DNA from: Escherichia phage PC3
Sequence record: ON184125
Reading direction: 5' to 3' (one strand)
DNA: 64,000 nucleotides
Shown: positions 5,396 through 35,331 of the stretch, piece after piece
Layout: every line of letters begins with the position of its first letter
Numbering within the stretch: the first letter of the stretch is position 1
Program-made: the position numbers and the translations under genes
The notes under the pieces: generated by a model
The model's database searches: none
What the model was told of the DNA's origin: nothing
Seen by the model: the letters and a program-made list of their open reading frames with translations, nothing else

Positions 5396-5423
5396 AAACC
5401 CCGCTTCGGCGGGGTTCTTATTA
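5396..5423 (+). terminator. Terminator hairpin (duplicate of 2565..2589)
   Basis: Same ccccgcttcggcggggttcttatta sequence. Confidence 0.55.
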
Positions 5424-5454
5424 TATCCATGTTCATAAATTTTATTAGTTCAGG

Positions 5455-5497: not shown

Positions 5498-7906
5498 ATG
5501 ACCAGAAACGTCGAGAGCATCTTTGGAGCGGTCGTAACAGCTCCGCACCAGATTCCATACACTTACACAGCAACGGGCGGAGAGAAGTTTATCTCCCTCC
5601 CTTTCTACCCTGTCACTGGTATAGTCACAATCAACGGTGGTATGCAAGTTCCGTTAGACAACTTTGAAATCGATGGAAATACGTTGAATCTCGGACGCGC
5701 ATTATCCAAAGGTGACGTTGTGTTCTGTCTGTTTGACAAGATTCTGTCTCCAGAAGATTATAAAACCGGGGTTCGAATCTATAAGTTTCAGGCTATAGGA
5801 GGTGAAACCGAGTTCACTCCTGATTACACATCTTATGGAGTCCAATCTCTTTATATCGGTGGTGAGTACAAAACACCCGAAATTGAATATTCCTATGACA
5901 GCACGACAGGGAAAGTGACTTTACAAACTGCGCTGACTGCAGGCGTTTGGGTAGTCGCTGAAATGTCTGTTAAACAACCGAATATCAGTCCGTTGTTTGA
6001 CCGAAGTATTCAAGAAATCGCTCGTGCTACTAACGTCAAGGATAGTGAAGTAATCCTCAGCACGGATACTACTCAGTCCCTCAATGGTAAGAAGGTTGTT
6101 TATTCTGTTAGTGAGCAGAAGGCATATGGGTTGCCTACATTGCCTACTAACGTATATATTTCTTCCGTTAATGGTGACCAACTAACATACAATCCTGGTG
6201 GGATTGTTGTTGACCTGCTCCCTGCACCCAATGATGTAACTCCAGTGGAGAATGAGTTGCAGGTATATAAAACGGCTATGGTTACTGATGGGGGAACATT
6301 AGTAAATTCTGGCTTATCTGGTGTTTCTTCTGCAATTAAGCGAACCATTGATAGCCATTTTAAAGACTACTATAACGTTAAAGATTTTGGTGCTGTTGGT
6401 GACGGAGCTACTGATGATACGGTAGCCATAAAAGCAGCTATAGCTTATGCTGGCACCACAAAAGGCGTGGTTTATTTCCCGGATGGTAACTATAAAATAA
6501 GCAGTACTCTTGCTCTACCATCGAATGTATCAGTAATAGGGAGAAGTCGTGAATCAGTTATTATAACGAAAACGACATCCACCACCGTTACAGTTCTGGT
6601 GACAGCGCCTGCACTATCTGGAGGGTATACCGGAACCCTGCCTACAGATATGAATGCGGTTATTTGTTTAGGGGATTCTAGTAGTTCAAGATGGTCCGGT
6701 GTCATCACAGGGGTTACTCTGTATGGGACAAAAACTACAACGGAAAACCACGCGGTAGAATTTGGTATCGTAAATGCAGGCGTGGTATCCGACGCCACGA
6801 TAGAAGACGTCTATATTTACGATTGCAAGTATGGGCTAATTCTCCCTGTTGTATTTGCGTCGCGAGTAGGAAACAACCGCGTTACCGCATGTCTCGGTGG
6901 GGTATTTATAAACAACGGCACTTCATGCGTAATATCTACTAACTATAGTAATAGTTGCCGTGATTATGGGCATTGCTATCGGGATCTTAAATACTCTGTT
7001 ATAGAGGCTAATGCCTGTGATCACACTAACAGGAACGACTATTATCCGGACAGGACAAGAGTGTGTTATGGCTATATATTACAGAACCTGCTAGGGGTAA
7101 CGGTAACTGGGAATGGTCAAGAAGGCACTCTGGGTATTAACTGGAGATTGGATAATTTCGACCATAGCTCATTCACCAATAACACCAGTATTAGACTTGG
7201 TTCTGATTACACAGGCCCGTCTAACATATCATGGCTAGAATTAAATGGAGTGGCGCGCAACAGCATCATTGAGAACAATGTATCTTATGAGTACAACTCT
7301 AATGGGATGTTGTTTGGTGGGGCCGTAGCTGGGCAACACCATAATATTTACATCTCCGATATTACGTTTTTTAACGCAATATTGCGTAACAACATTGTAA
7401 GGTCTACACGAAATGGGGTTCCGGTGGAGGCTGGTTGGCTCAACAATGTTACCAGAACGGTGGCGAATTCATCCGCCAAAATCAGGCCAGACCGTACTTT
7501 CTTAGCGAATGACCCCGGTTCGCCTGAAATTACAGTTCAATCAGGCACCAATGCGGTGATATCATACGGCGAGTATACCGTACATAACATAAATTATGTC
7601 GGAGATTTTGCTCATATATTCGGTGTGTTTGATGTGACAATTGAATGGAGTTCCGGCACCAGTCAGTTCATATCTGTGACAGGATTTCCTGTCGCGCGGG
7701 ATTACGCATACATAGCAGTAACAGGGGTGAACAACGGGGACATCGGTTTTACCTCTGGAAATATTCCAGCCAGCTTTCGAATGAACATCGGGAACACTGG
7801 AGGAGCGTTCTTTACTGAAGGTGAAAAAACGCTTCGCATTGATGCAGTTGTGTCCGGTAAACGTTTGTATATTAGCTACGACGGGTGGTATCGGGTTAGC
7901 CCTTAA
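5498..7906 (+). CDS. Tailspike protein 3 (pectate-lyase-like right-handed beta-helix)
   Basis: Motif NVKDFGAVGDGATDDTVAIKAAIAYAG...VVYFPDGNYKISS typical of beta-helix glycanases; divergent copy of the shared module; start chosen by alignment with the TSP2 leader (alternative ATG 5483). Confidence 0.7.
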   Translation: MTRNVESIFGAVVTAPHQIPYTYTATGGEKFISLPFYPVTGIVTINGGMQVPLDNFEIDGNTLNLGRALSKGDVVFCLFDKILSPEDYKTGVRIYKFQAIGGETEFTPDYTSYGVQSLYIGGEYKTPEIEYSYDSTTGKVTLQTALTAGVWVVAEMSVKQPNISPLFDRSIQEIARATNVKDSEVILSTDTTQSLNGKKVVYSVSEQKAYGLPTLPTNVYISSVNGDQLTYNPGGIVVDLLPAPNDVTPVENELQVYKTAMVTDGGTLVNSGLSGVSSAIKRTIDSHFKDYYNVKDFGAVGDGATDDTVAIKAAIAYAGTTKGVVYFPDGNYKISSTLALPSNVSVIGRSRESVIITKTTSTTVTVLVTAPALSGGYTGTLPTDMNAVICLGDSSSSRWSGVITGVTLYGTKTTTENHAVEFGIVNAGVVSDATIEDVYIYDCKYGLILPVVFASRVGNNRVTACLGGVFINNGTSCVISTNYSNSCRDYGHCYRDLKYSVIEANACDHTNRNDYYPDRTRVCYGYILQNLLGVTVTGNGQEGTLGINWRLDNFDHSSFTNNTSIRLGSDYTGPSNISWLELNGVARNSIIENNVSYEYNSNGMLFGGAVAGQHHNIYISDITFFNAILRNNIVRSTRNGVPVEAGWLNNVTRTVANSSAKIRPDRTFLANDPGSPEITVQSGTNAVISYGEYTVHNINYVGDFAHIFGVFDVTIEWSSGTSQFISVTGFPVARDYAYIAVTGVNNGDIGFTSGNIPASFRMNIGNTGGAFFTEGEKTLRIDAVVSGKRLYISYDGWYRVSP

Positions 7907-7915
7907 TTTTATTAT

Positions 7916-7940
7916 AAAGGTCCCATTCGGGACCTTTTCT
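7916..7940 (+). terminator. Rho-independent terminator after TSP3
   Basis: aaaggtccc-attc-gggaccttt plus T-run. Confidence 0.6.
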
Positions 7941-8224
7941 TATATAGAGTTTAGTGTCTGTTGTGTATGCAAGTATTGTTGGTAATAATGGTATTAAAGA
8001 AGCGTATACCTGAGTTCTACAGAAAGGATGGAAAGAATTTGTTACTCCTGCTGGTTCAAGGTGAGGTTTAATACCAGACCGATGTGCATGGTTAGAGGCT
8101 GCTTACCCGTCTAGAATCAATAAACAAATTCTAGGTTGGTTAGCTGAATTGAGAATCGGTAAATAACTTTACTTACATGCCTCCCCACGTTGGGAGGCTT
8201 ACTTAGAAAAACAAAGAGGTCATT

Positions 8225-10450
8225 ATGAACGAAATGTTCTCACAAGGCGGTAAAGGCTCTACTGGTATTCTTACCAATAAGCAAGCCATTGCTCGTAAGT
8301 TTGGTGTTAAGCAAAATGAAGTAGTCTACTTTGCTGTGGGAGTGGACTTGGGTGGCTACAAAGTAATCTATGACAAGTCTACCCAACGTGCTTACTCATT
8401 ACCTGTACTTCCAGTAGGAACCACTGCCGTAAGCCTCAATAAACATGCAGTCCTGGTTCATTCCGCAGGCACAGTTGATTTGGGGGAACTGGCTGCTACA
8501 CGTAGAGAGTTCGTGAACCTATCCGACTCGTTTGCTACTGGTTTAGTTGTGAATACTAGAAATGAATTACTATTTCATAATGGCATAGGTTACACCTACT
8601 TAGGTTCCTTACCTGTAACTATTGTCGCAGGAACTAACCCAGTTGGTAACGCTGACTGGAAGCCGCAGACAGATCCTAATTTACGGGACGTGCGTGCTTT
8701 TGGGGTTGTCGGTGATGGGTCTGATGAGGCATCTAGTTTACAGTTAGCCATTAACTCGGGGAATGTTTTTGTTCCTCCGGGCATGACAATTTCCCATTCA
8801 CAAGTCAACATACCAAAAGGTACGATTTTTACTTTCGGTCACGGTGCTGGGTTGACATCATTGACCGCTAATGCTCTTAATTTCGTCAGCGAGAGCCAAT
8901 TCAGCTTGCTTTCCCCTGCGGCTTCCGGAGCAACGTCCATCACATTAACATCTGAGGTGGCAGGAACTGGGTATACTCGGGCGTTGGTAATACGCACTGA
9001 GGACACAAGTGACGCTTGGTATATTGCCAACGCACAGAATCCGGATGTAACCGGATACCAAGGAGAATCTTTTTTAATATCGTCCATATCAGGTGCTACT
9101 GTAAATTTAGCAACGGCTTTACCGTGGGACCTAACTACCTCCAATTCGGTTATTTATCTTATAAAAGGCAACGCTACTAAGTTCATCGGGGGAATCTTAA
9201 AAAATTCTGCGTCAGGGTCTAGCTACATGTACCAATCTGTGGGGGCTTCGCTTATAGAGTTCCATGGTACTGTTTTTGATTATAATGGAAATGGCGGTTC
9301 AAGGCATGATAACGCGTACGGTGTGGTGTACCACAACACTACCCATACCGGGCGTGTCGGAAATGGTAATATATTTTTTGGTTACGGATCTACAGATTGT
9401 ACTGTTACAGGTACGACCCACATTGGAGGGACCGGTGGGGATGCGCAAATAATATCTTATGCTGGCTGCCGTAACATCCGTACATCCCATAACACCCTAA
9501 AACCTACGGCCAACAACGGAGGTATATATTTTGGTGCAAAATGCTTCGACTGCAACACCCATGCTGATTATATTAAAGGCGGAAAGTATGGGGTTATGGG
9601 GGCATTTGGTGCTCAGTGTATTGTTGTGGACTCGCTGGCGGCAGACGACCAAATATCAGGCGCTATCTTTATGGAGCAATGCCAGAACTTTACCATCACA
9701 AACCCGTCTATTAGATTCGTAAGGACTGGCGCTCAAACAACCGCTGCGATATTAATTAAGGACTGCGATTATGTGACAGTGGATGCAAATGTCCCTGTAA
9801 ATACAGGGGCGAACGGGTATATAGTCAGTATGTATAGCGCTCCTGCATACGCCCTAACAGTTAGAAAAAATATAAACATTACGGTAAAAGGTACTGGCAG
9901 TGTATACCTTACTAGCCCTATGACCAATTTCTCGATTAAAGACTGTTTAACATCCGGCGGTATGACAGTTTACTACGCCAATGGTACGTCTACTTACGGC
10001 AAGGTTACGCGTAATAGTTGCCGGTTTTTAGTAGCTCAAAGTTTCCAATATTGTGACATAGATAGTAACACCATTGCGGGGGATTCTGATTCTGAGGGTA
10101 TACGCCTTGGTGGTAACTGTAGATGGAACAACGTATATAGAAACAAGGTTAGTGGGGTTACTACGGCATTCTTCGTTAACTCAGCACCCGCAAATCTATA
10201 CACAAATGCGTTTCATGATGATAACGTAATAGATTACTCAACAGTAACCACCTTCGTATCATCTCAGACTGGAACCACCACACCAGTTACTGGAGTGTTA
10301 AACCCCGCTCCAGTGAGGAATTTCTTTCTCCCGGCAACAGGTTGGCAGGATAGCCCTACGGTAAAAAGAACTGTTAGTGGCTGGAGGCATAAAGGCACTA
10401 CAACAGGCACAGCGTCTGATTGGTTTACTATCCCCTCGTCAGAAGCGTGA
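8225..10450 (+). CDS. Tailspike protein 4 (beta-helix)
   Basis: Shared module at N-terminus (FGVKQNEVVYF...SAGTVDLGELA), then VRAFGVVGDGSDEASSLQLAINSG beta-helix signature; SD aaagagg upstream. Confidence 0.75.
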   Translation: MNEMFSQGGKGSTGILTNKQAIARKFGVKQNEVVYFAVGVDLGGYKVIYDKSTQRAYSLPVLPVGTTAVSLNKHAVLVHSAGTVDLGELAATRREFVNLSDSFATGLVVNTRNELLFHNGIGYTYLGSLPVTIVAGTNPVGNADWKPQTDPNLRDVRAFGVVGDGSDEASSLQLAINSGNVFVPPGMTISHSQVNIPKGTIFTFGHGAGLTSLTANALNFVSESQFSLLSPAASGATSITLTSEVAGTGYTRALVIRTEDTSDAWYIANAQNPDVTGYQGESFLISSISGATVNLATALPWDLTTSNSVIYLIKGNATKFIGGILKNSASGSSYMYQSVGASLIEFHGTVFDYNGNGGSRHDNAYGVVYHNTTHTGRVGNGNIFFGYGSTDCTVTGTTHIGGTGGDAQIISYAGCRNIRTSHNTLKPTANNGGIYFGAKCFDCNTHADYIKGGKYGVMGAFGAQCIVVDSLAADDQISGAIFMEQCQNFTITNPSIRFVRTGAQTTAAILIKDCDYVTVDANVPVNTGANGYIVSMYSAPAYALTVRKNINITVKGTGSVYLTSPMTNFSIKDCLTSGGMTVYYANGTSTYGKVTRNSCRFLVAQSFQYCDIDSNTIAGDSDSEGIRLGGNCRWNNVYRNKVSGVTTAFFVNSAPANLYTNAFHDDNVIDYSTVTTFVSSQTGTTTPVTGVLNPAPVRNFFLPATGWQDSPTVKRTVSGWRHKGTTTGTASDWFTIPSSEA

Positions 10451-10467
10451 CTTATAGCTGTAAAACT

Positions 10468-10492
10468 AAGGCCCCAAATGGGGCCTTTTCTT
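10468..10492 (+). terminator. Rho-independent terminator after TSP4
   Basis: aaggcccc-aaat-ggggcctt plus T-run; same downstream tail as the 7916 terminator. Confidence 0.6.
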
Positions 10493-10860
10493 ATATAGAA
10501 TTTACTGTTTGCATTACCCTAACCGATACTGCTGTTAAGGTTATTACTTGCCCAGAGATATTAAACATACCCAATTGAATACCTTCTACCATGAAAGGGT
10601 CTGTCGAACCAAGTTTGTAAGTGGCTAATACGTTATCTCTGTTGGCAATGTCTGTACCCTGTACCTTAACACTAGCATCTGAACCTACTACTGTGGTTCC
10701 ATTGGTTCGCCTTGTTTGCGTTCTCCATTCCCTGGCTGTACCAGCACCCCTGCAATAGTTCCTGAAGAATGCGGAGGTCTTGAATCCATGACCATAACCA
10801 CAGAAAGATAATCAAAGCCCCTTCGGGCTTATTTCTTTCTATTCCTCGGTTGGTTGTATA

Positions 10861-23590: not shown

Positions 23591-23594
23591 AAAT

Positions 23595-23625
23595 AAACCC
23601 CGCTTCGGCGGGGTTTTAAATTTTT
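23595..23625 (+). terminator. Rho-independent terminator after gp18
   Basis: ccccgc-ttcg-gcgggg plus TTTTAAATTTTT. Confidence 0.6.
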
Positions 23626-23646
23626 CCAGATTATTTTATTGAATTA

Positions 23647-23675
23647 CTTTACTTCTTCAATAACTCACGTATAAT
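23647..23675 (+). promoter_or_regulatory. Sigma70-like promoter (CTTTAC-17-TATAAT)
   Basis: Upstream of the 23724 gene; -10 context TATAATTCTA recurs at 31852 and 38245. Confidence 0.4.
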
Positions 23676-23723
23676 TCTAAACATAAGCAGTACGACACCA
23701 ACTTGAAACGAAGGAACTATATC

Positions 23724-24080
23724 ATGACCAAGACCGAAATTAACGCTATCCTGAAAGAAATCGGCCTCTGTAACCTGAAACGCCGCATCAATCCTTACCA
23801 GCCTGCAAAACCAGTACGCGACAGCCAGGGAAAGATGATAAAAGGGATCTACTGTGCAGATGTTGGTCCAATGACGGTGACCAGTCCACACATTGACAGA
23901 TTTAACGCTATTGTTGGGGAGTTTTGTGGTAAGGTTCTGGGTGAACTAGCTAATGATTTATGCTCCCCAGATACCAAAGTTGTAGCTTTCGGGAGCCACC
24001 TCGTCACCTTCCACCTCACCAGCTTCCGTGCCCACGGTGATTATTATGTGTATTATGCTCAGGTTAGCATTCGCAAATAG
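23724..24080 (+). CDS. Hypothetical protein (118 aa)
   Basis: ORF with aaggaa SD, preceded by a sigma70-like promoter (CTTTAC-17-TATAAT). Confidence 0.4.
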   Translation: MTKTEINAILKEIGLCNLKRRINPYQPAKPVRDSQGKMIKGIYCADVGPMTVTSPHIDRFNAIVGEFCGKVLGELANDLCSPDTKVVAFGSHLVTFHLTSFRAHGDYYVYYAQVSIRK

Positions 24081-24086
24081 TAGTTT

Positions 24087-24114
24087 ACCCCGCTGAGGCG
24101 GGGTTTTAGTTTTC
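24087..24114. terminator. Terminator hairpin between convergent genes
   Basis: accccgc-tgag-gcggggt plus TTTTAGTTTT. Confidence 0.5.
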
Positions 24115-25890
24115 CAGTTCATACCGGATAAGACCACACCCCCAGATACGCCCCAACCCGGCTTCTATCGCCAGCATATCCTCTGTTTTACCTTCTACAT
24201 TGTATCCAAGTTTAAGGAATTTCTCTTTCCTGAAATTGAATTTGTGTATACGTGAGCCATAGTCTGGAGTCACATATTTGTAATCAGGGGGAAGGATTTC
24301 CTTTTCAACAAATCCGTTATTCAGGTAAACATTTTTCAGACGACTGACAACACAACGATCACCAAAAGAATATACTGTCTCACCCCGATGTCGAGCGATA
24401 TAATATTTCAGTAAGCGTGAGAATGCGCCATGACAATTGTTAGAAGCAAATCTCACCAATTCAATACCATGCGTCCGTTTGGTAAACAACATCACCGCCT
24501 GGATATTCCCAGTTTTGTCTACAAGGTGTATATAATCTGTCGCCACCACACCACCTTGTATATGGAATCGGTCGAGAAAGTCCTTGGACGTCCTATAGGA
24601 GCCTTCTAAAATGATATGTTGGCGAGCGTATGACAATGGTTTCCCTATCCCCAATTTTGCTTTAAGGAGTGATTTAACCACTTCCCGTTTGTCACGCCAC
24701 TCATCTTCCCAGATATGGATTAATTGAATACCCTGGGCTTCACAGTACATGGTCTTTTCAAGATGGTAGTCTTTGTATCGATGTTTCTCTGTATGCCAGT
24801 ACAAGCCGTTAAATTCTATTGCCAACTTATGTTCTGGGCAGTATATGTCTATCTGGCGTGTGGTCACCCTTCCGTCGAACATTTTACCTCTGAGGACGGA
24901 GAAATTACCAGATTCGCATATAACACCCAATGAATCCAGGTATGAACATATTTCTATTTCTGGCTGCGTTTGGCTTTGGCTGCTGGGGTACGTGAAAGAG
25001 TTCCTATATTCTTCAGAAGAGAAATAGTGAGGTACGCCGTATTTTTCTTTTGAAATGATCCTGGTATTGACCTGGCTTCTATCCCATATAGCCTTTACCT
25101 TCAACGGATAATCAACCCCATATTTTAAGACGCATGTTTTCTTTCTCTTTTCTATAATGGAATTGAGGAACATTGGATGATCCACACCATAGATCTTCCT
25201 CCAAGTCTCAATCACCCTTTCCCTCACTTCTGGCATTTTCATGACGTGTGATACGCCATAGCGTTCCATGACGGAAGCAGCCACTCTGTCCTTTATAACA
25301 TCAGACTTCATAGGGTGGTCGACCCCATATTTCTTAAGGACAGTTTCCCGCGACTTTTGTTTTACTTCTTCCAGTTGGAATGTGTTGGCTACGCCATATT
25401 TCTCTGATATGGCGTTTTCTAGGTTGACCCGTTCTGAGCCTCCCGCCTTCATTGATTTTCGTTGGCATTCTTCGGAACAAAACTTTTTGTATCTGGGTGG
25501 TTGGGCTTCCATTTCTAAGCCAACGTCAGCACCGCAAGTGACACACTGCGACTTCGGAATATCGTACAGCCAAGCAGTTATCGCTTGTGGTTCTTCTAAT
25601 AGGTCGTTGTGTGACACCACGTATCCAACAACATCAACCCCAGTATGGGCCGTGAGTAGGGGATGAGAGATAAGTTTGTAGTTCAACGAACCATCTTTCT
25701 TCCTGAGTTTACTATCAACCCAAGAGCGGCATTCGGTTTCGGTCGTCGGGATGTTATCCAACAAACCCGGATTGCGTTTCATCGTTCCCAGCATGAATGA
25801 TTTACATTCGTCACTACAATACAACGCAGCCTTCCTGGTTGGGGTGAACGGTTTGTGGCAGCATGAACAATTTTTATCGGGGAATGGCAT
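24106..25890 (-). CDS. Homing-endonuclease-like protein 1: two zinc ribbons, KYGV repeats, PD-(D/E)XK (Vsr/DUF559-like) domain
   Basis: CxxC pairs, repeated KYGVxHP units, IDIYCPEHKLAIEFNGLYWH...IHIWEDEW nuclease-like motif; paralog of 31887..33875; inserted between gp18 and gp19 on the opposite strand. Confidence 0.55.
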   Translation of the reverse strand: MPFPDKNCSCCHKPFTPTRKAALYCSDECKSFMLGTMKRNPGLLDNIPTTETECRSWVDSKLRKKDGSLNYKLISHPLLTAHTGVDVVGYVVSHNDLLEEPQAITAWLYDIPKSQCVTCGADVGLEMEAQPPRYKKFCSEECQRKSMKAGGSERVNLENAISEKYGVANTFQLEEVKQKSRETVLKKYGVDHPMKSDVIKDRVAASVMERYGVSHVMKMPEVRERVIETWRKIYGVDHPMFLNSIIEKRKKTCVLKYGVDYPLKVKAIWDRSQVNTRIISKEKYGVPHYFSSEEYRNSFTYPSSQSQTQPEIEICSYLDSLGVICESGNFSVLRGKMFDGRVTTRQIDIYCPEHKLAIEFNGLYWHTEKHRYKDYHLEKTMYCEAQGIQLIHIWEDEWRDKREVVKSLLKAKLGIGKPLSYARQHIILEGSYRTSKDFLDRFHIQGGVVATDYIHLVDKTGNIQAVMLFTKRTHGIELVRFASNNCHGAFSRLLKYYIARHRGETVYSFGDRCVVSRLKNVYLNNGFVEKEILPPDYKYVTPDYGSRIHKFNFRKEKFLKLGYNVEGKTEDMLAIEAGLGRIWGCGLIRYELEN

Positions 25891-25938
25891 AATAAATATC
25901 CTCACTTTGGAGTATTTTAACCCCCATTTATTTCAAAA

Positions 25939-25945
25939 CTAAATA
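25939..25945 (+). promoter_or_regulatory. Putative late promoter (CTAAATA)
   Basis: 27 nt upstream of gp19. Confidence 0.45.
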
Positions 25946-25971
25946 TTTACACTATTCAGAGGAGAACGACC

Positions 25972-26505
25972 ATGGCTACAGTTAATGAATTCAGAGCAGC
26001 TATGTCACGCGGGGGCGGCGTTCAGCGCCAACACCGTTGGCGTGTGACTGTTAACTTCCCTTCCTTCGTGGCTGGAAGCGATACCATCCGTGATGTTTCG
26101 CTGTTGGCGGTGACAACAAATACCCCAACAGGCCAGCTCGGGGAAATACTCGTCCCATGGGGTGGTCGTGAACTTCCATTCCCAGGTGACCGCCGCTTCG
26201 AAGCGCTGCCTGTGACGTTCATCAACGTCGTGGACAACGCCCCGTACAACGCATTCGAAGTCTGGCAGCAGTATATCAACGGCAGCAACAACAACCGTGC
26301 GTCTGCTAACCCAGATGATTATTTCCGTGATGTAATCATGGAACTACTGGATGCGAATGACAACGTCACCAAGACCTGGACCCTTCAGGGTGCCTGGCCT
26401 CAGAACCTCGGTCAGCTGGAACTGGACATGTCTGCAATGGACTCTTATACTCAGTTCACTGTTGACCTGCGTTACTTCCAGGCCATTTCAGACAAGTCTC
26501 TCTAA
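25972..26505 (+). CDS. gp19: Tail tube protein gp19
   Basis: C-terminal LDMSAMDSYTQFTVDLRYFQ resembles T4 gp19 (LDWDSNNEIQTFEVTLALDYWE); CTAAATA and gaggag SD upstream. Confidence 0.8.
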   Translation: MATVNEFRAAMSRGGGVQRQHRWRVTVNFPSFVAGSDTIRDVSLLAVTTNTPTGQLGEILVPWGGRELPFPGDRRFEALPVTFINVVDNAPYNAFEVWQQYINGSNNNRASANPDDYFRDVIMELLDANDNVTKTWTLQGAWPQNLGQLELDMSAMDSYTQFTVDLRYFQAISDKSL

Positions 26506-26571
26506 TGTCCTCAGTGCTGGGGGATCTTTATTCCCCCTCACTAATTACAAGAAAATGTTGAGGACTTAATC

Positions 26572-28266
26572 ATGGCATTCGGTAATGGTGCATTCGGAAA
26601 TGGGTTCTTCGGCCTGTTCGGTAGAGGCGGTAAAGTAGAAGCGCCGATTGATACCGACAAGATGGTCACGAACCAAGAAGAGAAGTTGCTTTCAAAAGCG
26701 ACTGTTGTTGCTCTGGACGATTCTCAGGATGGTTCCATCATCCTCCAGGGCGGCGCGAACACATTCAATTTCGTTGGTGTTGAGAATGAGTTGCTCAACG
26801 TCAAACAGCTGGTCGAAGAGTACCAATCTATGGCTCAGCAGCCTGAGATTCGTAAGGCTGTGGATATCATTGTCAACGACGTCGTCACTTGTGAAGAGGA
26901 AGAGACTCCTGTAACCATAAACCTGGAAAAGGTAGATGGCATCACAAACGAAGTCAAAGAGAAGATCACTGACGCATTCAAAGAGATCATGCATCTCCTT
27001 GACTTTGACAACACGGCGTATCAGAAGATCCGCAAATGGTATATTGAAGGCCGTCAGGCATTCCACGTTGTGGTGGACCCGAAGAACAAGAAAGCGGGTA
27101 TCGCCAAACTCATCATGATGGACTCACGCTGTATCCGCCCAGTGTACATCGTTCAAAAGGCGATGCGCGACGGTATCGAAGTCATCAATGACGTAAAACT
27201 TCAATACTACTACAACCCGAACTACAACCGCAACCAATTCACTGGCCAGTCCGGTACGTCTCAGAACTTCCAACCGTCACAGCAAGAGCTGGTGTTTGAT
27301 GATGAGAGCATAGTGTATCTGGACAGTGGTGAAGAGCCTCTGGCGAATGGGGTTGTACCAAGCCTGCTGAACCCAGCTATCCGTCCCCTGAACAACCTTG
27401 TTACAACTGAAGATGCAACGGTGATCTATGCGATCACACGTGCTCCTGAGAAGCGAGCGTTCTATCTCGACGTGGGTACGCTGGGTAAGAAATCGGCCGA
27501 AGAATACATGCAAGCCATGATGGGCAAATTCAAGAACCGTCTGGCGTATGATCGCACCACTGGTAAGGTGGCTGGTAACACTCATTTGATGGGTATCGCT
27601 GAGGACTACTGGCTACCACGTCGCGAAGGGCAGAACGCAACCGAGATCTCCAACGTAGGCGGTGGCGACCAACTGGGTCAAATGGATCATGTGGTATACT
27701 TCCGCGAGAAACTCTACGAGGCTCTGATGATCCCTAAGAGCCGCCTGCAAGAGGAAGGTTCCATCAACATCGGTGGTTCCAATCTTGCTGAAATTACGCA
27801 GGAAGAATTGCGCTTCAACAAGTTCTGTGCGAGCCTGCGCCGTCGTTATTCTTCTGGTATCTTCCTGGAACTTCTGCGCCGTCAGCTGATATTGAAAGGC
27901 ATTACAGACCAGGCTGACTGGAATGAGAAGATCAAGCCGTTCGTCAAGTTCGAATTCACTTCTGACAGCTTCATCCGTGAACAACAAGAGAACGAAATCT
28001 TGTCGCAGCGTATGGCGGCTCTCGGTCAGATCGAACCATATATCGGCACTCTCTTCTCTATCGATTTTGCTCAACGCAATCTGCTGCGCATGTCCGATGA
28101 AGACATCAAAGACCAGCAAGAGAAGATCGCGAAAGAGAAGAAAGAAGGCAAATACCCTGAAGTACAGGCAGATGAGTCCGGCGGCTTCGGCAGCGGGGAA
28201 GTCAGTCCACTGAAATTCAGACCTAACGTCATCCCAGCGACTAACCCTCCTGGTGGTGAAGAATAA
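26572..28266 (+). CDS. gp20: Portal protein gp20
   Basis: Extended similarity to T4 gp20 (e.g. YAITRAPEKRAFYLDVGTL...EDYWLPRREGQ vs YRITRAPDRRVWYVDTGNM...EDYWLQRRDGK). Confidence 0.9.
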   Translation: MAFGNGAFGNGFFGLFGRGGKVEAPIDTDKMVTNQEEKLLSKATVVALDDSQDGSIILQGGANTFNFVGVENELLNVKQLVEEYQSMAQQPEIRKAVDIIVNDVVTCEEEETPVTINLEKVDGITNEVKEKITDAFKEIMHLLDFDNTAYQKIRKWYIEGRQAFHVVVDPKNKKAGIAKLIMMDSRCIRPVYIVQKAMRDGIEVINDVKLQYYYNPNYNRNQFTGQSGTSQNFQPSQQELVFDDESIVYLDSGEEPLANGVVPSLLNPAIRPLNNLVTTEDATVIYAITRAPEKRAFYLDVGTLGKKSAEEYMQAMMGKFKNRLAYDRTTGKVAGNTHLMGIAEDYWLPRREGQNATEISNVGGGDQLGQMDHVVYFREKLYEALMIPKSRLQEEGSINIGGSNLAEITQEELRFNKFCASLRRRYSSGIFLELLRRQLILKGITDQADWNEKIKPFVKFEFTSDSFIREQQENEILSQRMAALGQIEPYIGTLFSIDFAQRNLLRMSDEDIKDQQEKIAKEKKEGKYPEVQADESGGFGSGEVSPLKFRPNVIPATNPPGGEE

Positions 28267-28303
28267 TTCGACTAAGTATAGAAAACATTTAGAGGATATG
28301 AAC

Positions 28304-28474
28304 ATGGCCGCTATCGATCTGGTAAAAGCAATCATCGCTGGTGATACTGATGCCGCTGCTGCTGAATGCGAAATGGAGCTATCCGCTCGCGCCCAAGAAC
28401 TGGTCCAGCAGGGTACTGAATATGTCTTGAACTCCCTGAGCCAAGACATGGGTCCTTTCGGCGACGACCAGTAA
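28304..28474 (+). CDS. Prohead core protein (gp67-like)
   Basis: Small acidic protein between portal and protease; start chosen by SD spacing. Confidence 0.45.
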   Translation: MAAIDLVKAIIAGDTDAAAAECEMELSARAQELVQQGTEYVLNSLSQDMGPFGDDQ

Positions 28475-28486
28475 GAGGAATGTATC

Positions 28487-28792
28487 ATGGAAATCGAAGA
28501 AGTTGCAACGTTCGCTGATTTCCTGGCTTCCCGCATGGATGAGCAGAAAGTCATTGACAAGGTGAACGCAAAAGGCAAACGCCGTCGCCGTCTGCAGTGT
28601 GCTCCTGGTTTCAAACTGTCTGCGGATGGTTCCCGTTGTGAGGTGATGGTCGCCAGTGAGCGCCGTACCCGCAAGCTGGGCAACCGCAAGGCGATCCGAG
28701 CCAAGAAACGCATGGGTATGGGATACCAGCGCAAAATCGAGCGTCGTAAGAAAAAAGCAATGAAGTTCCGTCGTATGATGGGACTGAGTTAA
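28487..28792 (+). CDS. Prohead core protein (gp68-like), highly basic
   Basis: 101-aa Lys/Arg-rich protein in the T4 gp68 position. Confidence 0.45.
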   Translation: MEIEEVATFADFLASRMDEQKVIDKVNAKGKRRRRLQCAPGFKLSADGSRCEVMVASERRTRKLGNRKAIRAKKRMGMGYQRKIERRKKKAMKFRRMMGLS

Positions 28793-28799
28793 GGAGCGA

Positions 28800-29468
28800 A
28801 TGATGAAACTGTTGCGTGAGATCACTGCGATAGGGAAAGACCTTCAGATTGGCGAAGCGGCCACGGCTACTGGCGGCAAAGCCATGTACATCGAAGGTCC
28901 ATTCGTGATGTGTAACCAGGTGAACCGTAATGGTCGCAACTACGATCTCCAAAAGGTGGGTATCCCTGCTGTCGAAGCATACGACAAAGAGTATATCCAG
29001 GATCGTCGTGCAATCGGTGAACTCAAGCATCCGGATTATCCTTTCCCCGATATCGAACACGCTGCACTCAAAACCGAATCTTTGCGCTGGGAAGGCACCA
29101 ACGCTATCGGTCGAGCGCGGATCCTGAATACACCGAAAGGTCAGATCATTCGTGCTCTGGCTGAAGCAGACTTCAACCTGGCCGTGTCTACACGTGGCCT
29201 TGGTGAGACCAAGTCAGTGAACGGCTATGATGACGTTCAACCCGGCTTTATGCTCACTGCTGTTGATGCAGTCGACCGTCCTTCTGGACAAGTTTGTTAT
29301 GTAAAGGCTGTGAGCGAATCTGTGGAATGGCAGCTTGATGAATCTTCAGGAATTTGGGTTCCTAAGGACATTAAGGGGCATGTGGTCGATTCATTGGTGA
29401 AAACCAATATTCAGTTAGAAGACGACTTCCTGCGCCGCCTCGATATCGCATTGAAACATCTGGGCTGA
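28800..29468 (+). CDS. gp21: Prohead core protease gp21
   Basis: YIEGPFVMCNQVNRNGRNY, GELKHP, GRARILNTPKG, STRGLGE match T4 gp21 blocks. Confidence 0.85.
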   Translation: MMKLLREITAIGKDLQIGEAATATGGKAMYIEGPFVMCNQVNRNGRNYDLQKVGIPAVEAYDKEYIQDRRAIGELKHPDYPFPDIEHAALKTESLRWEGTNAIGRARILNTPKGQIIRALAEADFNLAVSTRGLGETKSVNGYDDVQPGFMLTAVDAVDRPSGQVCYVKAVSESVEWQLDESSGIWVPKDIKGHVVDSLVKTNIQLEDDFLRRLDIALKHLG

Positions 29469-29479
29469 ATTCAGCCTCA

Positions 29480-29486
29480 CTAAATA
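29480..29486 (+). promoter_or_regulatory. Putative late promoter (CTAAATA)
   Basis: 28 nt upstream of gp22. Confidence 0.45.
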
Positions 29487-29513
29487 CTGAAAATCGTTCA
29501 GAAGGAAACAATC

Positions 29514-30368
29514 ATGAAACCTGAATTGCAAAAACTGTTTGAGGGCGTTAACGGCCTCAGCACCGACTTCCTGGATAAAGTGTCTGGTCTGCTGGAATCT
29601 AAAGTAGAAGCCGCTCGCCTGACCGCTATTCAAGAAACCGAAAACGCTGCCAACATTGAGCGCCTGCGTCTGGTTGAAGCTCATCAGGCTGAGATTGCTC
29701 AGCTGAAAGAGTCTCACTTGATGGAAATCGCGACCAAAGTCGATGGCTTCCTGAATGCTGTTGTAGAAGAGTGGGCTAACAAGAACGCTCCTGCTATCGA
29801 CGCTCAGATCAAACGTGAAGCGGCTGAAAATCTGCTGACTGGCCTGACTGGTGTTCTGAAAGAAGCTGGTATTAACTTTGCCACCGACGAAAACGGCCAG
29901 ATCGCTGCGCTGACTGCCCGCCTGGCCGAAGCAGAACAACGTGCTGCGATTGCCGAAAGCGAAAACCGTCAAATCAAAGAAGCCGCGAATGCGACTCTGC
30001 GTGACTCTGTGATCGCCCGTGTCTGTGAAGGTATGGTCGACACCAAGAAAGCAACGGTTGTCAATCTGCTGGAAGCTGTGCAGTTCACCACCGAAAGCGA
30101 ATTCGCTTCCCGCGTACACACCTTCCGCAACCTGGTAGAAGGTAAGTCCGTGAAGAAAGAAGGCGATGACGATGACGATGACTTCCAAGACAAAGTCGGC
30201 GGAAAAGACGGCGATGACGACAACAAAGATGGTAAAGTCGAAGAAGGCAAAAAGTCTAAGAAAGAAGGCGATGAAGATGACGATGAAGATGAAACAGACA
30301 AAGAGCTGAAAGAATCTATCAAGCGTCAGTTGGCCGACTATAATCGTCGCTTCGGCATCAACGGCTAA
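29514..30368 (+). CDS. gp22: Prohead scaffold protein gp22
   Basis: Coiled-coil-like, acidic C-terminus rich in D/E/K; position between gp21 and gp23; CTAAATA upstream. Confidence 0.75.
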   Translation: MKPELQKLFEGVNGLSTDFLDKVSGLLESKVEAARLTAIQETENAANIERLRLVEAHQAEIAQLKESHLMEIATKVDGFLNAVVEEWANKNAPAIDAQIKREAAENLLTGLTGVLKEAGINFATDENGQIAALTARLAEAEQRAAIAESENRQIKEAANATLRDSVIARVCEGMVDTKKATVVNLLEAVQFTTESEFASRVHTFRNLVEGKSVKKEGDDDDDDFQDKVGGKDGDDDNKDGKVEEGKKSKKEGDEDDDEDETDKELKESIKRQLADYNRRFGING

Positions 30369-30450
30369 TTTTAGCAGCCACAGCCCTCGAAAGGGGGCTT
30401 GATTTTGAACTACTAAGTAATTTCAACTTAACTGAATATCAATGTAAGGA

Positions 30451-31782
30451 ATGACCATCATGGCTAAGAAACTTGTTACCGAACAAATGCGCGAGCAGTG
30501 GCTGCCAGTTCTTCAGAAAGAATCTGAAAGCATCCAGCCGCTTTCTGCCGAAAACGTTGCCGTCCGTCTGCTGCAAAACCAGGCTGAGTGGAACGCCAAA
30601 AACCTGGGCGAATCTGACGCTCCTGGCTCCGTGAACGCCTCTGTGGGCAAATGGCAGCCAGTCCTGATCGACATGGCCAAACGTCTGGCTCCGGTCAACA
30701 TCGCGATGGACTTCTTCGGCGTTCAGCCGCTGTCTGGTCCTGACGGTCAGATCTTCGCACTGCGTGCTCGCCAGGGCGTTGCAGACGGCTCCAACACTGC
30801 CCAGTCCCGCGCTGAGCTGTTCATGAACGAAGCCAACTCCGGTTACTCCGGTGACGATACTGCACAGGCTGGCGACCCATCTGGCTTCTCCCAGACTGAG
30901 ATCGAAGGTTCCGGCGCTGCTACCACCACCATCGGTAAAGGCATGTCAACTTCCGACGCTGAACTGCTGGGCACCACCACCAACCCATGGGCACGTGTTG
31001 GTATCACCGTTCAGAAAGCAACCGTGACTGCGAAGTCTCGCGGCCTGTACGCTGACTACAGCCATGAACTGCGCCAGGACATGATGGCGATCCACGGCGA
31101 AGACGTTGACAGCATCCTGTCCGACGTGATGGTAACTGAAATTCAGGCAGAGATGAACCGTGAGTTTATCCGCACCATGAACTTCAGCGCAGTACGCTTC
31201 AAAAAATTCGGCACCAACGGTATCGTAGACATCTCCACTGACATCTCCGGTCGTTGGGCGCTGGAAAAATGGAAGTACATGACTTTCATGCTGGAAGTTG
31301 AAGCGAACGGCATCGGTGTTGACACCCGTCGTGGTAAAGGCAACCGTGTTCTGTGCTCCCCGAACGTAGCATCCGCTCTGGCGATGTCCGGCATGCTGGA
31401 TTATGCTCCGGCGCTGCAGGAAAACACCAAGCTGTCGATTGATCCGACTGGTCAGACCTTCGCTGGTGTGCTGTCGAACGGTATGCGTGTATACATTGAC
31501 CCGTATGCAGTAGCAGAATACATCACCCTGGCATACAAAGGTGCAACCGCGCTGGATGCTGGTATCTTCTTCGCACCATACGTGCCGCTGGAAATGTACC
31601 GCACCCAGGGTGAAACCACCTTCGCACCACGCATGGCGTTTAAAACCCGCTACGGCATCTGTGCTAACCCATTCGTTCAGATCCCAGCGAACCAGGATCC
31701 ACAGGTCTATGTGACTGCGGATGGTATCGCCAAGGACACCAACGTGTATTTCCGTAAAGGGCTGATCAAAGGCCTGTTCTAA
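30451..31782 (+). CDS. gp23: Major capsid protein gp23
   Basis: GVQPLSGPDGQIFALRA and C-terminal KTRYGICANPFV blocks match T4 gp23; 443 aa. Confidence 0.92.
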   Translation: MTIMAKKLVTEQMREQWLPVLQKESESIQPLSAENVAVRLLQNQAEWNAKNLGESDAPGSVNASVGKWQPVLIDMAKRLAPVNIAMDFFGVQPLSGPDGQIFALRARQGVADGSNTAQSRAELFMNEANSGYSGDDTAQAGDPSGFSQTEIEGSGAATTTIGKGMSTSDAELLGTTTNPWARVGITVQKATVTAKSRGLYADYSHELRQDMMAIHGEDVDSILSDVMVTEIQAEMNREFIRTMNFSAVRFKKFGTNGIVDISTDISGRWALEKWKYMTFMLEVEANGIGVDTRRGKGNRVLCSPNVASALAMSGMLDYAPALQENTKLSIDPTGQTFAGVLSNGMRVYIDPYAVAEYITLAYKGATALDAGIFFAPYVPLEMYRTQGETTFAPRMAFKTRYGICANPFVQIPANQDPQVYVTADGIAKDTNVYFRKGLIKGLF

Positions 31783-31807
31783 TCGAACAGTTGTCCTTAA
31801 CCCTGAC

Positions 31808-31837
31808 AAACCCCGCCAACGTGCGGGGTTTTCTTTT
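31808..31837 (+). terminator. Rho-independent terminator after gp23
   Basis: aaaccccgc-caacgt-gcggggttt plus TTTTCTTTT. Confidence 0.65.
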
Positions 31838-31886
31838 GAAACAAACCAGCATATAATTCTAAAATAATAATAGGTAGGATTAGATC

Positions 31887-33875
31887 ATGATTCATATATG
31901 CCGGACATGCAAAACCTCATTCGTCAATGCCCAGTCAAAGGCCGTCTACTGTAGTGTTGATTGCAGAACCTTTTACCAAACAGTTGGTATCAAATTCTCC
32001 CCAGAGTTAATGTCGGACGCCAAATTTATTCAAACTGAAGATGACTACAAAGACTTCATCCGTGAATATTTCTATATGAAGAATGGCAACCTGAATTACC
32101 AACTACTATCTTCACCCCTGTTGTCATCTTACCTTGGCGTAGACCCCCTCAAATATGCCAACCAGCACAACTCTGAAGAATCCGTGAACACCCGTGTATT
32201 GGTCTGGTTACACGACGTCAAACCAACACCTTGTATCACCTGCGGTGCTAGAACTTCTGTCGAGATTAAGAAGTCTATCCCATCCTACCGGAAATATTGT
32301 TCGGAGGAATGCTATGCCCAATCAATGAAGTTGGGTGGTGAAGCCCGTAAAGTCTTGGACAAGACAATACTGGACAAATATGGCGTGGAAAACGTGTTCC
32401 AGGATGAATCCATAAAAGGGAAGGCACGGTTGACCATGCTGCAGCGTTTCGGCGTAGAACACATTATGCAGTCTGAAGAGGGGCGGCAGCTATTCAGAGA
32501 TTCCGTTATGGAAAAATATGGGGTTGAGCACCCGATGCAGTTGGAAGAGATCAAACGGCGCGCATGGGATACCCTCGGTGCTCGGTCTTGGTATGCTACT
32601 TCAGAAGGTAAAGCTGCGCGGGAGAAGGCATTTGGTGGATACCAAGGCGGTCATCCGATGCGTGACAGGGGTGTTATAGAGAAGATAATCTCAAACAATC
32701 TCAAGCGGTATGGTGTTGAATGGCCTGCTCAAGACCCTGTTATCAAAGCTAAAGTTGTAGACACCATGTTGGAAAAATATGGTGTGTCCCACCCATTACA
32801 AATACCAGAAGTGAAAGCCAGAGTCAAACAAAGTCACCAAACAAAGTACGGTAGATTCTATTTCAATAGACATGAGGTTATGTTATTGGCTTCGGAACGT
32901 TCTAAAGAGACATGTGTTAGAAAATATGGTGTACCATATGCGTTGCAGAACAAATCCATGTGGGAACACATTACGTCATCCCTTAATTCGAAATCAAAAC
33001 CAGAAATAGAAATATCTGATTGGCTCACTTCAATGGGGGTTGCCCACAAATGCTCCGACTTCACCCTCCTAAACAATATGAATTGCCAGGACGGTGGAAC
33101 TCGACGCCAGATAGACATCTATTGCCCAGAACACAAACTGGCAATAGAATTTAATGGCCTGTATTGGCACAGTGAGATACACAAATATCGCCGTTATCAT
33201 CTCGAAAAGACAGAGGCATGTGAAGCACAAGGCGTTCAGCTGATACACATCTGGGAAGATGAGTGGCATAACAACCCAGAGATCGTGAAAGGGTTGCTGG
33301 CTGCCAAACTCGGGATCAAGAAGCCATCCGGGTACGCCCGTCAGTGTTATGTAGAGGAAGGTAAGAAGTCGGATATTCTAGAACTCCTGGCCTCTCAACA
33401 CATACAGGGCACCATTCATTCGGCCACGCATTACCTTCTCCTCAGAGATAAGAGAGACAACCGGGTTCGGGCTGTCATGACCTTTATCAAACGTGTGGTG
33501 AAGGGGGAACAGTGTATGGAACTTACGAGGTTTGCCTCCGACGGCATTCACGGGGCGTTCTCTAAACTGCTGGCGTACTACAAGGAACATCTCTGGGATG
33601 GCGTGAAGACTTTCTCCTTTGGCGATAGGTGTGTTGTTAGTCGGTTGTCCAACATTTACCTTTCTCACGGGTTCGTCGAGGAAGAAATACAAGACCCGGA
33701 TTACAAATATCACAAACCAGGGACTCTCATGCGGGAGCACAAGTTTGGATTCAGAAAGGCAGACTTTGCTCAGATGGGCTATGACGTAGAAGGTAAGACA
33801 GAAGATCAGTTAGCAACCGAAGCCGGGCTGGTCAGGATTTGGAATTGTGGACTGATCAAATATGTCTTGAACTAA
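31887..33875 (+). CDS. Homing-endonuclease-like protein 2 (paralog of 24106..25890)
   Basis: Same architecture; stretches such as RQIDIYCPEHKLAIEFNGLYWH are identical in both proteins (~88% DNA identity there). Confidence 0.55.
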   Translation: MIHICRTCKTSFVNAQSKAVYCSVDCRTFYQTVGIKFSPELMSDAKFIQTEDDYKDFIREYFYMKNGNLNYQLLSSPLLSSYLGVDPLKYANQHNSEESVNTRVLVWLHDVKPTPCITCGARTSVEIKKSIPSYRKYCSEECYAQSMKLGGEARKVLDKTILDKYGVENVFQDESIKGKARLTMLQRFGVEHIMQSEEGRQLFRDSVMEKYGVEHPMQLEEIKRRAWDTLGARSWYATSEGKAAREKAFGGYQGGHPMRDRGVIEKIISNNLKRYGVEWPAQDPVIKAKVVDTMLEKYGVSHPLQIPEVKARVKQSHQTKYGRFYFNRHEVMLLASERSKETCVRKYGVPYALQNKSMWEHITSSLNSKSKPEIEISDWLTSMGVAHKCSDFTLLNNMNCQDGGTRRQIDIYCPEHKLAIEFNGLYWHSEIHKYRRYHLEKTEACEAQGVQLIHIWEDEWHNNPEIVKGLLAAKLGIKKPSGYARQCYVEEGKKSDILELLASQHIQGTIHSATHYLLLRDKRDNRVRAVMTFIKRVVKGEQCMELTRFASDGIHGAFSKLLAYYKEHLWDGVKTFSFGDRCVVSRLSNIYLSHGFVEEEIQDPDYKYHKPGTLMREHKFGFRKADFAQMGYDVEGKTEDQLATEAGLVRIWNCGLIKYVLN

Positions 33876-33879
33876 AAGA

Positions 33880-33938
33880 ACATTTCAATAACGGGGCGAG
33901 AGGTATTATTGCCCCGTCTATTAATCGAGGAAATCGCA
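33880..33938 (+). repeat. Copy 1 of a ~45-bp direct repeat with internal hairpin
   Basis: ttcaataacggggcgagaggtattattgccccgtctattaatcgagg; second copy 260 bp downstream. Confidence 0.6.
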
Positions 33939-35155: not shown

Positions 35156-35184
35156 GTTTAATTCTTCAATAAACCCCGTATACT
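35156..35184 (+). promoter_or_regulatory. Sigma70-like promoter (GTTTAA-17-TATACT)
   Basis: Followed by a leader homologous to the one after the 23647 promoter. Confidence 0.35.
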
Positions 35185-35331
35185 TCATTCCATAAGCAGC
35201 ACAACACTGACTTGAAATGAAGGAACTATCACCACTCTCGTTACAAAGTAACATTGCAGCAATTTGTTCTAAACCTTTGAACAGGGTGTGTTAACCACAT
35301 ACCCTATTCCCTACAAATAGAGGACTTTATC

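Follow-up and report, generated by a model that had tools for sequence, protein, structure and literature searches.

The stretch of Escherichia phage DNA analyzed here (64,000 nucleotides [nt]; record ON184125, phage PC3), referred to below as the window, is 100% identical to the first 64 kb of GenBank record ON184126.1 of Escherichia phage PH4 (Ackermannviridae, Aglimvirinae), and the name PH4 is used for it throughout. It contains two genes, A and B. With good confidence, we regard both as functional, free-standing genes for homing endonucleases of the Hef type, which forms a subfamily of the Vsr-like "EDxHD" enzymes; both proteins end in a domain that resembles Mom of phage Mu. The two open reading frames (ORFs), with their lengths in amino acids (aa) and their ribosome-binding sites (RBSs), are as follows.

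24106..25890, minus strand: gene A, Hef-like homing endonuclease; 594-aa ORF, PHROG 3339, RBS GAGGA upstream of the ATG at 25890
31887..33875, plus strand: gene B, Hef-like homing endonuclease; 662-aa ORF, PHROG 3339, RBS AGGTAGGA upstream of the ATG at 31887

A first-pass annotation, made from the sequence alone, had described them as paralogs on opposite strands. Both ORFs were found at these coordinates, and the proteins align end to end with 42% aa identity (E value of 3e-162). There is no third paralog within the window, and a tblastn search of the PH4 record matched these two places only. The lower GC content noticed earlier was also borne out, with values of 43.6% (A) and 46.0% (B) against 53 to 55% in the genes for sheath, tube, and capsid. 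The pair had been said to bracket a sheath-to-capsid block; since A lies between the sheath and tube genes, what the two genes bracket is the tube-to-capsid block.

The long starts given above are backed by homologs of matching length (594 and 662 aa), including a 662-aa homolog of B with 99% identity (sequence P0001). For A, the ratio of nonsynonymous to synonymous substitution rates (dN/dS) was determined against its counterpart F-LimVIII of Dickeya phage LIMEstone1. It amounts to 0.10 for aa 1 to 112, which supports the long start, to 0.10 to 0.14 for the individual zinc-ribbon, linker, nuclease, and GNAT segments, and to 0.147 overall, a value showing that purifying selection acts on A and that the gene is no pseudogene. 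In the GenBank record, the coding sequences (CDSs) start at 25794 (A) and 32010 (B). The PH4 annotation thus seems to begin both genes too late, and the first zinc ribbon is lost from it. GenBank also lists a CDS at 25793..25942 (plus strand) over the true 5' end of A, which is probably spurious.

Domain architecture of the two proteins

The structure of B was modeled with AlphaFold2 using 70 homologs (mean predicted local distance difference test [pLDDT] score of 87), and six parts were resolved. Their order is zinc ribbon, helical linker, zinc ribbon, 23-aa repeats, Vsr-like nuclease, and C-terminal GNAT domain. The corresponding segments of both genes, with isoelectric points (pI) where relevant, are as follows.

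25786..25890, minus strand: zinc ribbon 1 of A, aa 1-35 (C8, C11, C25, C29); from the sequence and the alignment with the B N terminus
31887..31982, plus strand: zinc ribbon 1 of B, aa 1-32 (C5, C8, C22, C26); in the model a beta-hairpin plus helix, pLDDT ~90
25555..25785, minus strand: acidic helical linker of A, aa 36-112, pI 5.8; from the alignment to B
31983..32222, plus strand: acidic helical linker of B, aa 33-112, pI 5.2; in the model helices at aa 39-108, pLDDT >90
25444..25554, minus strand: zinc ribbon 2 of A, aa 113-149 (C116, C119, C138, C142); from cysteine conservation in the 70 homologs
32223..32333, plus strand: zinc ribbon 2 of B, aa 113-149 (C116, C119, C138, C142); from conservation and the model
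24991..25443, minus strand: six 23-aa helical repeats of A with a K-Y-G-V core, aa 150-300; DUF7487 (E = 2.6e-25), pI 9.5
32334..32981, plus strand: eight 23-aa helical repeats of B, aa 150-365; DUF7487 (E = 3.4e-31), pI 9.5
24649..24990, minus strand: Vsr-like (EDxHD-type) nuclease of A, aa 301-414 (E311, D348, E359, N361, H366, H376, K379); from sub-threshold Pfam matches to MTES_1575 and DUF559 and from invariant residues
32982..33314, plus strand: Vsr-like (EDxHD-type) nuclease of B, aa 366-476 (E373, D410, E421, N423, H428, H438, K441); from the Foldseek match to 3r3p and from invariant residues
24109..24648, minus strand: Mom-like GNAT domain of A, aa 415-594 (H443, R480, S491, D511, Y522), dN/dS 0.127; from profile comparisons and conserved residues
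33315..33872, plus strand: Mom-like GNAT domain of B, aa 477-662 (H505, R548, S559, D580, Y591)

The two zinc ribbons per protein that had been proposed earlier are present, but their cysteines are spaced CxxC...CxxxC and not CxxC...CxxC. Family-wide conservation applies to ribbon 2 only, whose cysteines are 89 to 96% conserved among the 70 homologs. The K-Y-G-V repeats likewise stood up to analysis; their period is, however, 23 aa and not ~30 aa, and instead of four to six copies there are six in A (aa 153 to 293) and eight in B (aa 152 to 356). The repeat module, which the first-pass annotation could not place, corresponds to the uncharacterized Pfam family DUF7487 and is standard in this protein family. 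In the model of B, the repeat region forms an array of helix pairs. It was not assigned to a known DNA-binding fold in the full-length Foldseek searches, whose lists were dominated by GNAT proteins or full-length homologs, and our literature searches returned no paper mentioning DUF7487. Phage YX22 carries at the site of B a 490-aa gene with one short DUF7487 stretch (aa 153 to 205), which leaves room for ~2 repeats. Since repeat number thus varies between alleles (~2, 6, or 8), the array is a candidate modular DNA recognition unit, and a modular specificity element is suggested.

The nuclease fold of B matches the catalytic domain of I-Bth0305I (PDB 3r3p; Foldseek against PDB, E value of 6e-3, probability of 1.0, target TM-score of 0.78, 21% identity), the sole non-GNAT entry among the 50 matches listed. 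This fold match was obtained on the model of B, and A was placed through its sub-threshold Pfam matches and the invariant residues. The earlier reading as a Vsr-like nuclease therefore agrees with the I-Bth0305I fold match, and no search placed the block in a non-nuclease fold. Residues D410, E421, H428, H438, and K441 (B numbering) are invariant in the 70 homologs, and E373 is 97% conserved; of the EDxHD elements, E373, D410, N423, and H428 are present and conserved in B. The family motif reads E-D-E-(N/D)-H-H-K, and its core is intact in 256 of the 265 two-domain relatives. The nuclease blocks of A and B had been reported as ~88% identical at the DNA level, a figure that holds in a 60-nt core only (86.7%); identity falls to 75.5% over the 159-nt block, and BLASTN gives 76% over 171 nt. 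Pfam gave no NUMOD match for A or B, whose N-terminal part is made up of the zinc ribbons and the DUF7487 repeats; the NUMOD/helix-turn-helix (HTH) DNA-binding region characterizes the prototype I-Bth0305I more than the catalytic family as such.

The conserved C-terminal domain, left unnamed in the first-pass annotation, is a Mom-like GNAT domain according to profile, hhalign, and fold matches. A profile of 30 C-terminal domains matched GNAT acetyltransferases in PDB (2fia, E value of 0.0018), and the domain is predicted to adopt the GNAT fold in the structural model. When the 30 domains were scanned singly, 17 matched the Pfam Mom model PF25680 (best E value of 9.7e-10). In hhalign, the comparison with Mu Mom alone gave 83.5%, and that with an alignment of 28 Mom proteins gave 96.2% (E value of 2.3e-9); a fold search of BFVD returned phage Mom among its matches (E value of 9.6e-7). 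Judged from these comparisons, the domain appears to be a sister group of the Mom family rather than a clear member. A generic small-molecule acetyltransferase is less likely, as Pfam matched Mom in 17 members and Acetyltransf_7 in 2.

The functionally important residues of Mom have been defined by mutagenesis (PMC7261163, PMC13219725). We mapped them by alignment, in the 241-aa numbering of Mom, and counted their conservation in 119 family members.

Mom H58: H505 in B, conserved in 119/119
Mom R111: R548 in B, conserved in 119/119
Mom S124: S559 in B, conserved in 102/119
Mom D149: D580 in B, conserved in 111/119
Mom Y159: Y591 in B, conserved in 119/119
Mom Y59: I506 in B; I, L, or V throughout the family
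Mom R151: C582 in B; Arg in 49/119, and Arg one residue earlier in 60, as in PH4

Equivalents of H58, R111, S124, D149, and Y159 are present in both A and B. The model of B further contains a helical insertion of ~40 aa with three short helices (aa 610 to 648) before the last two strands, topologically where Mom has its essential HTH-like insertion; the hhalign alignment does not run through it. The domain is basic (pI 8.8 to 9.4). A profile search of 1.84 billion cluster representatives gave 20,657 matches at an E value of ≤1e-3 and 12,691 at ≤1e-30, and among the best 150 of the 20,657 matches the Mom-like domain is almost always the C terminus of a protein of 430 to 1,060 aa. Other architectures exist, since some of the best-scoring relatives (P0241 to P0245 and P0257; 829 to 1,064 aa) have two Mom-like stretches or carry the domain in the middle of the protein.

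Mom itself transfers glycine from Gly-tRNA to the N6 of adenine in double-stranded DNA (PMC13219725, 2026). This 2026 paper makes no mention of nuclease fusions of Mom, and our literature searches for Mom or GNAT domains in homing endonucleases returned no relevant discussion. The anatomy is of note in that the nuclease is always followed by the Mom-like domain with most of the catalytic residues of Mom kept, a fusion not discussed in the literature searched.

Insertion sites, allele history, and relatives

Comparison with the empty junctions of Salmonella phage P46FS4, in which only 78 nt separate the sheath and tube genes, delimited two inserts.

23591..25971, no strand assigned: insert 1, which includes gene A, ORF 23724..24080, and a terminator of its own; BLASTN alignments break at 23588 and 25972
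31791..33901, no strand assigned: insert 2, downstream of the major capsid gene, with gene B only; BLASTN breakpoints at 31790 and 33902

The boundaries lie a few bases from the sheath and capsid stop codons and at the ATG of the tube gene. To estimate occupancy, we used 320 phage records matching the sheath/tube region, of which those with at least 80% coverage of the region were counted as carrying A. Gene A is present at this gap in 25 of the 320 records. Most of the remaining records match the flanks alone, and their gap holds one or two GIY-YIG endonuclease genes or nothing. The full-length B allele was found in two records only, PH4 and A221. Both genes thus occupy intergenic gaps and are missing from most relatives, in agreement with the proposal that they sit at positions typical of homing endonuclease genes. 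The locus is a hotspot at which Hef-like and GIY-YIG endonuclease genes swap between essential structural genes.

Several data point to ongoing decay and exchange. (i) Escherichia phage LHE287 keeps both ends of A (window positions 23597 to 24219 and 25680 onward; positions 2941 to 3560 and 3550 onward of the extract) around an internal deletion (24219..25680) in which 1.46 kb is gone; it therefore carries a decaying copy at the same site. (ii) Gene B is, judging by its alignments, a mosaic. Positions 33077 to 33875 share 97% DNA identity over ~800 nt with a shorter gene (508 aa) of fGh-Ecl02 (extract positions 10033 to 10830), whereas the 5' half is ~70% identical to the same gene (window positions 32036 to 32351, extract positions 9456 to 9771), and the repeat array of B is longer. 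(iii) The synonymous divergence of A from F-LimVIII amounts to 0.05 for the repeats (24991 to 25443) and 0.21 for the nuclease (24649 to 24990) but to 0.64 to 0.85 for the N-terminal and GNAT parts, so that the center of the gene appears to have undergone a recent exchange between alleles. (iv) Between PH4 and LIMEstone1, A (89% identity) is no less similar than the essential flanking genes (81 to 89.5%). Within the tube gene, the first 200 nt (25972 to 26170) reach 94% and the sequence further in 83%. The 5' end of the tube gene is near-identical in GIY-YIG-carrying relatives and differs at many synonymous positions in the empty-site phage P46FS4; this segment could be a co-conversion tract or a target region. 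The GenBank start of the tail tube gene is at 26002, and the ATG kept in five relatives is that at 25972.

Both proteins match the "homing endonuclease" family PHROG 3339 over nearly the whole profile (E values of 9e-192 for A and 2.7e-151 for B), and both genes are already annotated as homing endonucleases in GenBank. The tblastn matches carry the annotations "Hef-like homing endonuclease," "hef," and "Hef73," and B is matched by more than 3,300 proteins at an E value of ≤1e-5 in a 90%-clustered database. In two Acinetobacter phages, the homolog is annotated "putative nuclease/acetyltransferase protein."

The closest described counterparts, F-LimVIII and F-LimVII of LIMEstone1, were assigned by Adriaenssens et al. 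(2012, PMC3296691) to the Hef-like enzymes among the free-standing homing endonucleases. Positions and strands agree in both cases: F-LimVIII lies between the sheath and tube genes on the minus strand, and F-LimVII follows the major capsid gene on the plus strand. At both the nt and the aa levels, F-LimVIII has 89% identity to A, whose start it shares. F-LimVII, in contrast, has 491 aa compared with the 662 aa of B, a difference due to the extra DUF7487 repeats and the different N-terminal half of B. PH4 also differs from LIMEstone1 in the additional small ORF of insert 1 (23724..24080) and in the replacement of the native region upstream of the tube gene.

In a review (PMC2988022), the Hef protein of the T4-like phage U5 is described as a unique endonuclease with nrdB as the gene it cuts, and Taylor et al. 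(2011, PMC3239194) included the "bacteriophage Hef type homing endonucleases" among the Vsr-like EDxHD enzymes. Our comparison was made on genes annotated as Hef-like. Such genes of T4-like and other phages (Acinetobacter phage 133, Yersinia phage JC221, Proteus phage Pm5461, Campylobacter phages, and Klebsiella phage RaK2) align with the nuclease and C-terminal core (B residues ~290 to 660). Identity is, however, 26 to 34%, and since the aligned span starts late in the repeat region (from B residues ~229 to 330 to the end), the N-terminal zinc ribbons and linker seem to be absent there. I-Bth0305I has the catalytic fold in common with A and B, as well as E, D, N, and H of the motif. It differs in that it is intron encoded, has 266 aa, binds DNA through NUMOD/HTH repeats, and ends in the nuclease without a GNAT domain, whereas A and B have His at the fifth motif position, zinc ribbons and DUF7487, and a Mom-like domain after the nuclease. 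Mu Mom (PDB 8bv8; PMC13219725, PMC7261163) is a stand-alone protein of 231/241 aa, unlike the domain studied here, which is the C terminus of a nuclease. With the Seg and Mob enzymes of T4 and the free-standing GIY-YIG endonucleases of Ackermannviridae, A and B have their lifestyle in common, and in most relatives a GIY-YIG gene occupies the same sheath/tube gap; the catalytic folds and DNA-binding modules are nevertheless unrelated.

Two further observations concern distant relatives. A 712-aa member on jumbo-phage-like metagenomic contigs (extract positions 6001 to 8139) lies directly downstream of a recA-like gene with a 29-nt overlap; recA is the target gene of I-Bth0305I, the prototype of the family. 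In BFVD, part of the full-length model matched proteins of Klosneuvirus, Marseillevirus, and an iridovirus that are annotated as zinc-ribbon or restriction endonuclease proteins. Going by their names, these matches probably cover the zinc-ribbon/repeat/nuclease part, and the module may extend beyond phages.

Proposed function and alternatives

As Hef-type homing endonucleases, A and B would act as follows. The basic N-terminal part, formed by one or two zinc ribbons and the DUF7487 array, would hold the DNA and recognize the target. In a co-infecting relative without the gene, the Vsr-like domain, probably dimeric by analogy with I-Bth0305I, would then cut in or near the adjacent conserved structural genes. 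For the cleavage step we draw on I-Bth0305I and, in part, on what Hef of phage U5 is said to do. Through recombinational repair, the gap would receive a copy of the endonuclease gene along with flanking markers, a step that the comparative pattern supports. The Mom-like GNAT domain would be indispensable to the enzyme and maintained by selection; most likely it would serve as an active or substrate-binding nucleic acid module that binds or modifies adenine in DNA, and less likely as a passive linker or scaffold.

A number of observations weigh against this interpretation. (i) The nuclease domain is below the gathering thresholds of Pfam and NCBIfam, with sub-threshold matches to MTES_1575, DUF559, and Vsr in Pfam and to vsr in NCBIfam, and a HMMER sequence search of PDB matched 3r3p weakly (E value of 0.49). 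Because these matches are weak, the nuclease fold is set by structure prediction. (ii) The fifth EDxHD residue, an Asp in I-Bth0305I (D222) and Vsr, is here an invariant His (H438), followed by the invariant K441. (iii) The DNA-binding role of the DUF7487 repeats is based on their position, basic charge, and analogy, without a structural relative. (iv) The Mom model PF25680 does not match the PH4 copies at an E value of ≤1, so that the homology to Mom is carried by profile-profile and fold comparisons. (v) Mom Y59 is replaced by I, L, or V family-wide, and the equivalent of R151 is displaced in PH4. (vi) To our knowledge, neither a cleavage site nor a target nor a homing event has been described for A, B, or any Hef-like gene of Ackermannviridae.

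The alternatives differ mainly in what the GNAT domain does and in whether the genes are still mobile. Both proteins could be self-immune selfish enzymes akin to restriction-modification systems, in which the GNAT domain modifies adenine at or near the recognition site of the enzyme itself by transferring an aminoacyl or acyl group, in the manner of Mom with Gly-tRNA; the carrier genome would be spared in vivo and unmodified co-infecting genomes would be cut. The retention of the essential residues of Mom (H, R, and Y in all 119 members, D in 111, and S in 102), the GNAT dN/dS of 0.13, the helical insertion ahead of the final strands, where Mom topologically has its essential HTH-like insertion, the basic character of the domain, and its C-terminal fusion in nearly all of the best 150 of the 20,657 matching clusters all speak for it. 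Hef reportedly cuts the DNA of its own phage in vitro (Sandegren et al. 2005), which would leave scope for protection in vivo. However, an intact nuclease core combined with a variant GNAT motif (S to G, N, or T, or D to N) occurs in 60 of 265 relatives and the reverse pattern in 6, the opposite of what would be expected if the nuclease needed protection, and a specific self-protection model is weakened accordingly. The replacement of Y59 and the variability of R151 also count against it, as does the fact that homing endonucleases normally need no self-protection; in addition, we know of no modification reported in these phages apart from the known thymidine hypermodification. We therefore regard this possibility as unlikely. 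Somewhat less doubtful, yet still tentative, is that the GNAT domain serves as a noncatalytic structural module for dimerization and/or DNA binding or base flipping, with fold and pocket kept for binding. It would fit the need of I-Bth0305I to dimerize for a double-strand break (PMC3239194) and the nature of Mom as a DNA-binding dimer, as well as the loss of Y59 and the less strict conservation of the S and D positions compared with the nuclease residues. The invariance of H, R, and Y, which line the active site of Mom, nevertheless goes beyond what a scaffold usually needs; R111 of Mom is required for catalysis and not for cofactor binding (PMC7261163, PMC13219725).

Turning to mobility, A and B might be domesticated nucleases that no longer move and serve in competition with related phages (marker exclusion), degradation of host DNA, or counter-defense. 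Purifying selection across all domains and the retention of the same two positions in phages of Dickeya and Escherichia, which are distant lineages, would be in line with such a role, and recent work has shown that free-standing endonucleases can benefit a phage (PMC13096335). The distribution is patchy, though, unrelated GIY-YIG genes take the place of A in the same gap, and a deletion remnant and allele mosaicism are found, which together indicate continuing gain and loss; we consider domestication improbable as a replacement for homing, with which it is compatible. The possibility that the genes are decaying pseudogenes or chance ORFs is negligible. The shorter GenBank starts of both genes and the decay seen in LHE287 could be cited in its favor, but the unbroken ORFs of 594 and 662 aa, the dN/dS of 0.15, the intact catalytic motifs, and the presence of RBSs refute it.

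As homing endonuclease genes, A and B are routine, since names for counterparts that are near-identical or share their position date from 2012; novelty is confined to the under-described architecture of the family, chiefly the Mom-like domain. If this domain were active, it would change the view of how abundant selfish nucleases recognize DNA or spare their own genome. In a stronger version, the Hef-type enzymes would be bifunctional, with the Mom-like GNAT domain as an active nucleic acid (adenine) acyl- or aminoacyltransferase that cooperates with the Vsr-like nuclease and might, for instance, mark or protect the target sites of the carrier. We have doubts about this version; if true, a family of more than 12,000 clusters (at 50% identity) would act as selfish systems of the "modify-self, cut-rival" kind in a single chain. 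It would also offer a large and untapped source of Mom-like enzymes that modify DNA, thousands of them with built-in DNA-targeting modules.

Regulatory-like elements near the inserts

Terminator-like and promoter-like features accompany both inserts.

23595..23616, scored on both strands: terminator-like hairpin after the sheath gene, AAACCCCGC..GCGGGGTTT
24087..24104, plus strand: terminator-like hairpin that separates the 3' end of A from ORF 23724..24080, the two being convergent
31808..31865, plus strand: terminator-like hairpin after the capsid gene (31808-31831), then a promoter-like site (31836-31865) before B

The hairpin after the sheath gene is common to PH4 and LIMEstone1, both carriers of the Hef-like gene, and the four other aligned relatives have CATGCCCTC..GAGGGCAT instead. 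GC-rich hairpins of the same stem-loop-stem family flank the endonuclease inserts and are found elsewhere in the window too, at 2560 to 2583, 5396 to 5429, 23595 to 23616, 24087 to 24104, and 31808 to 31831. ORF 23724..24080 (118 aa) has no Pfam match. Upstream of it, at 23648 to 23720, lies a 73-bp promoter/leader-like segment (TTTACT-16-TATAAT) that is repeated at 35157 to 35229; the two copies are ~11.5 kb apart and share 81% identity, and the equivalent in LIMEstone1 is annotated as an early promoter. By its sequence, this segment resembles a mobile regulatory cassette.

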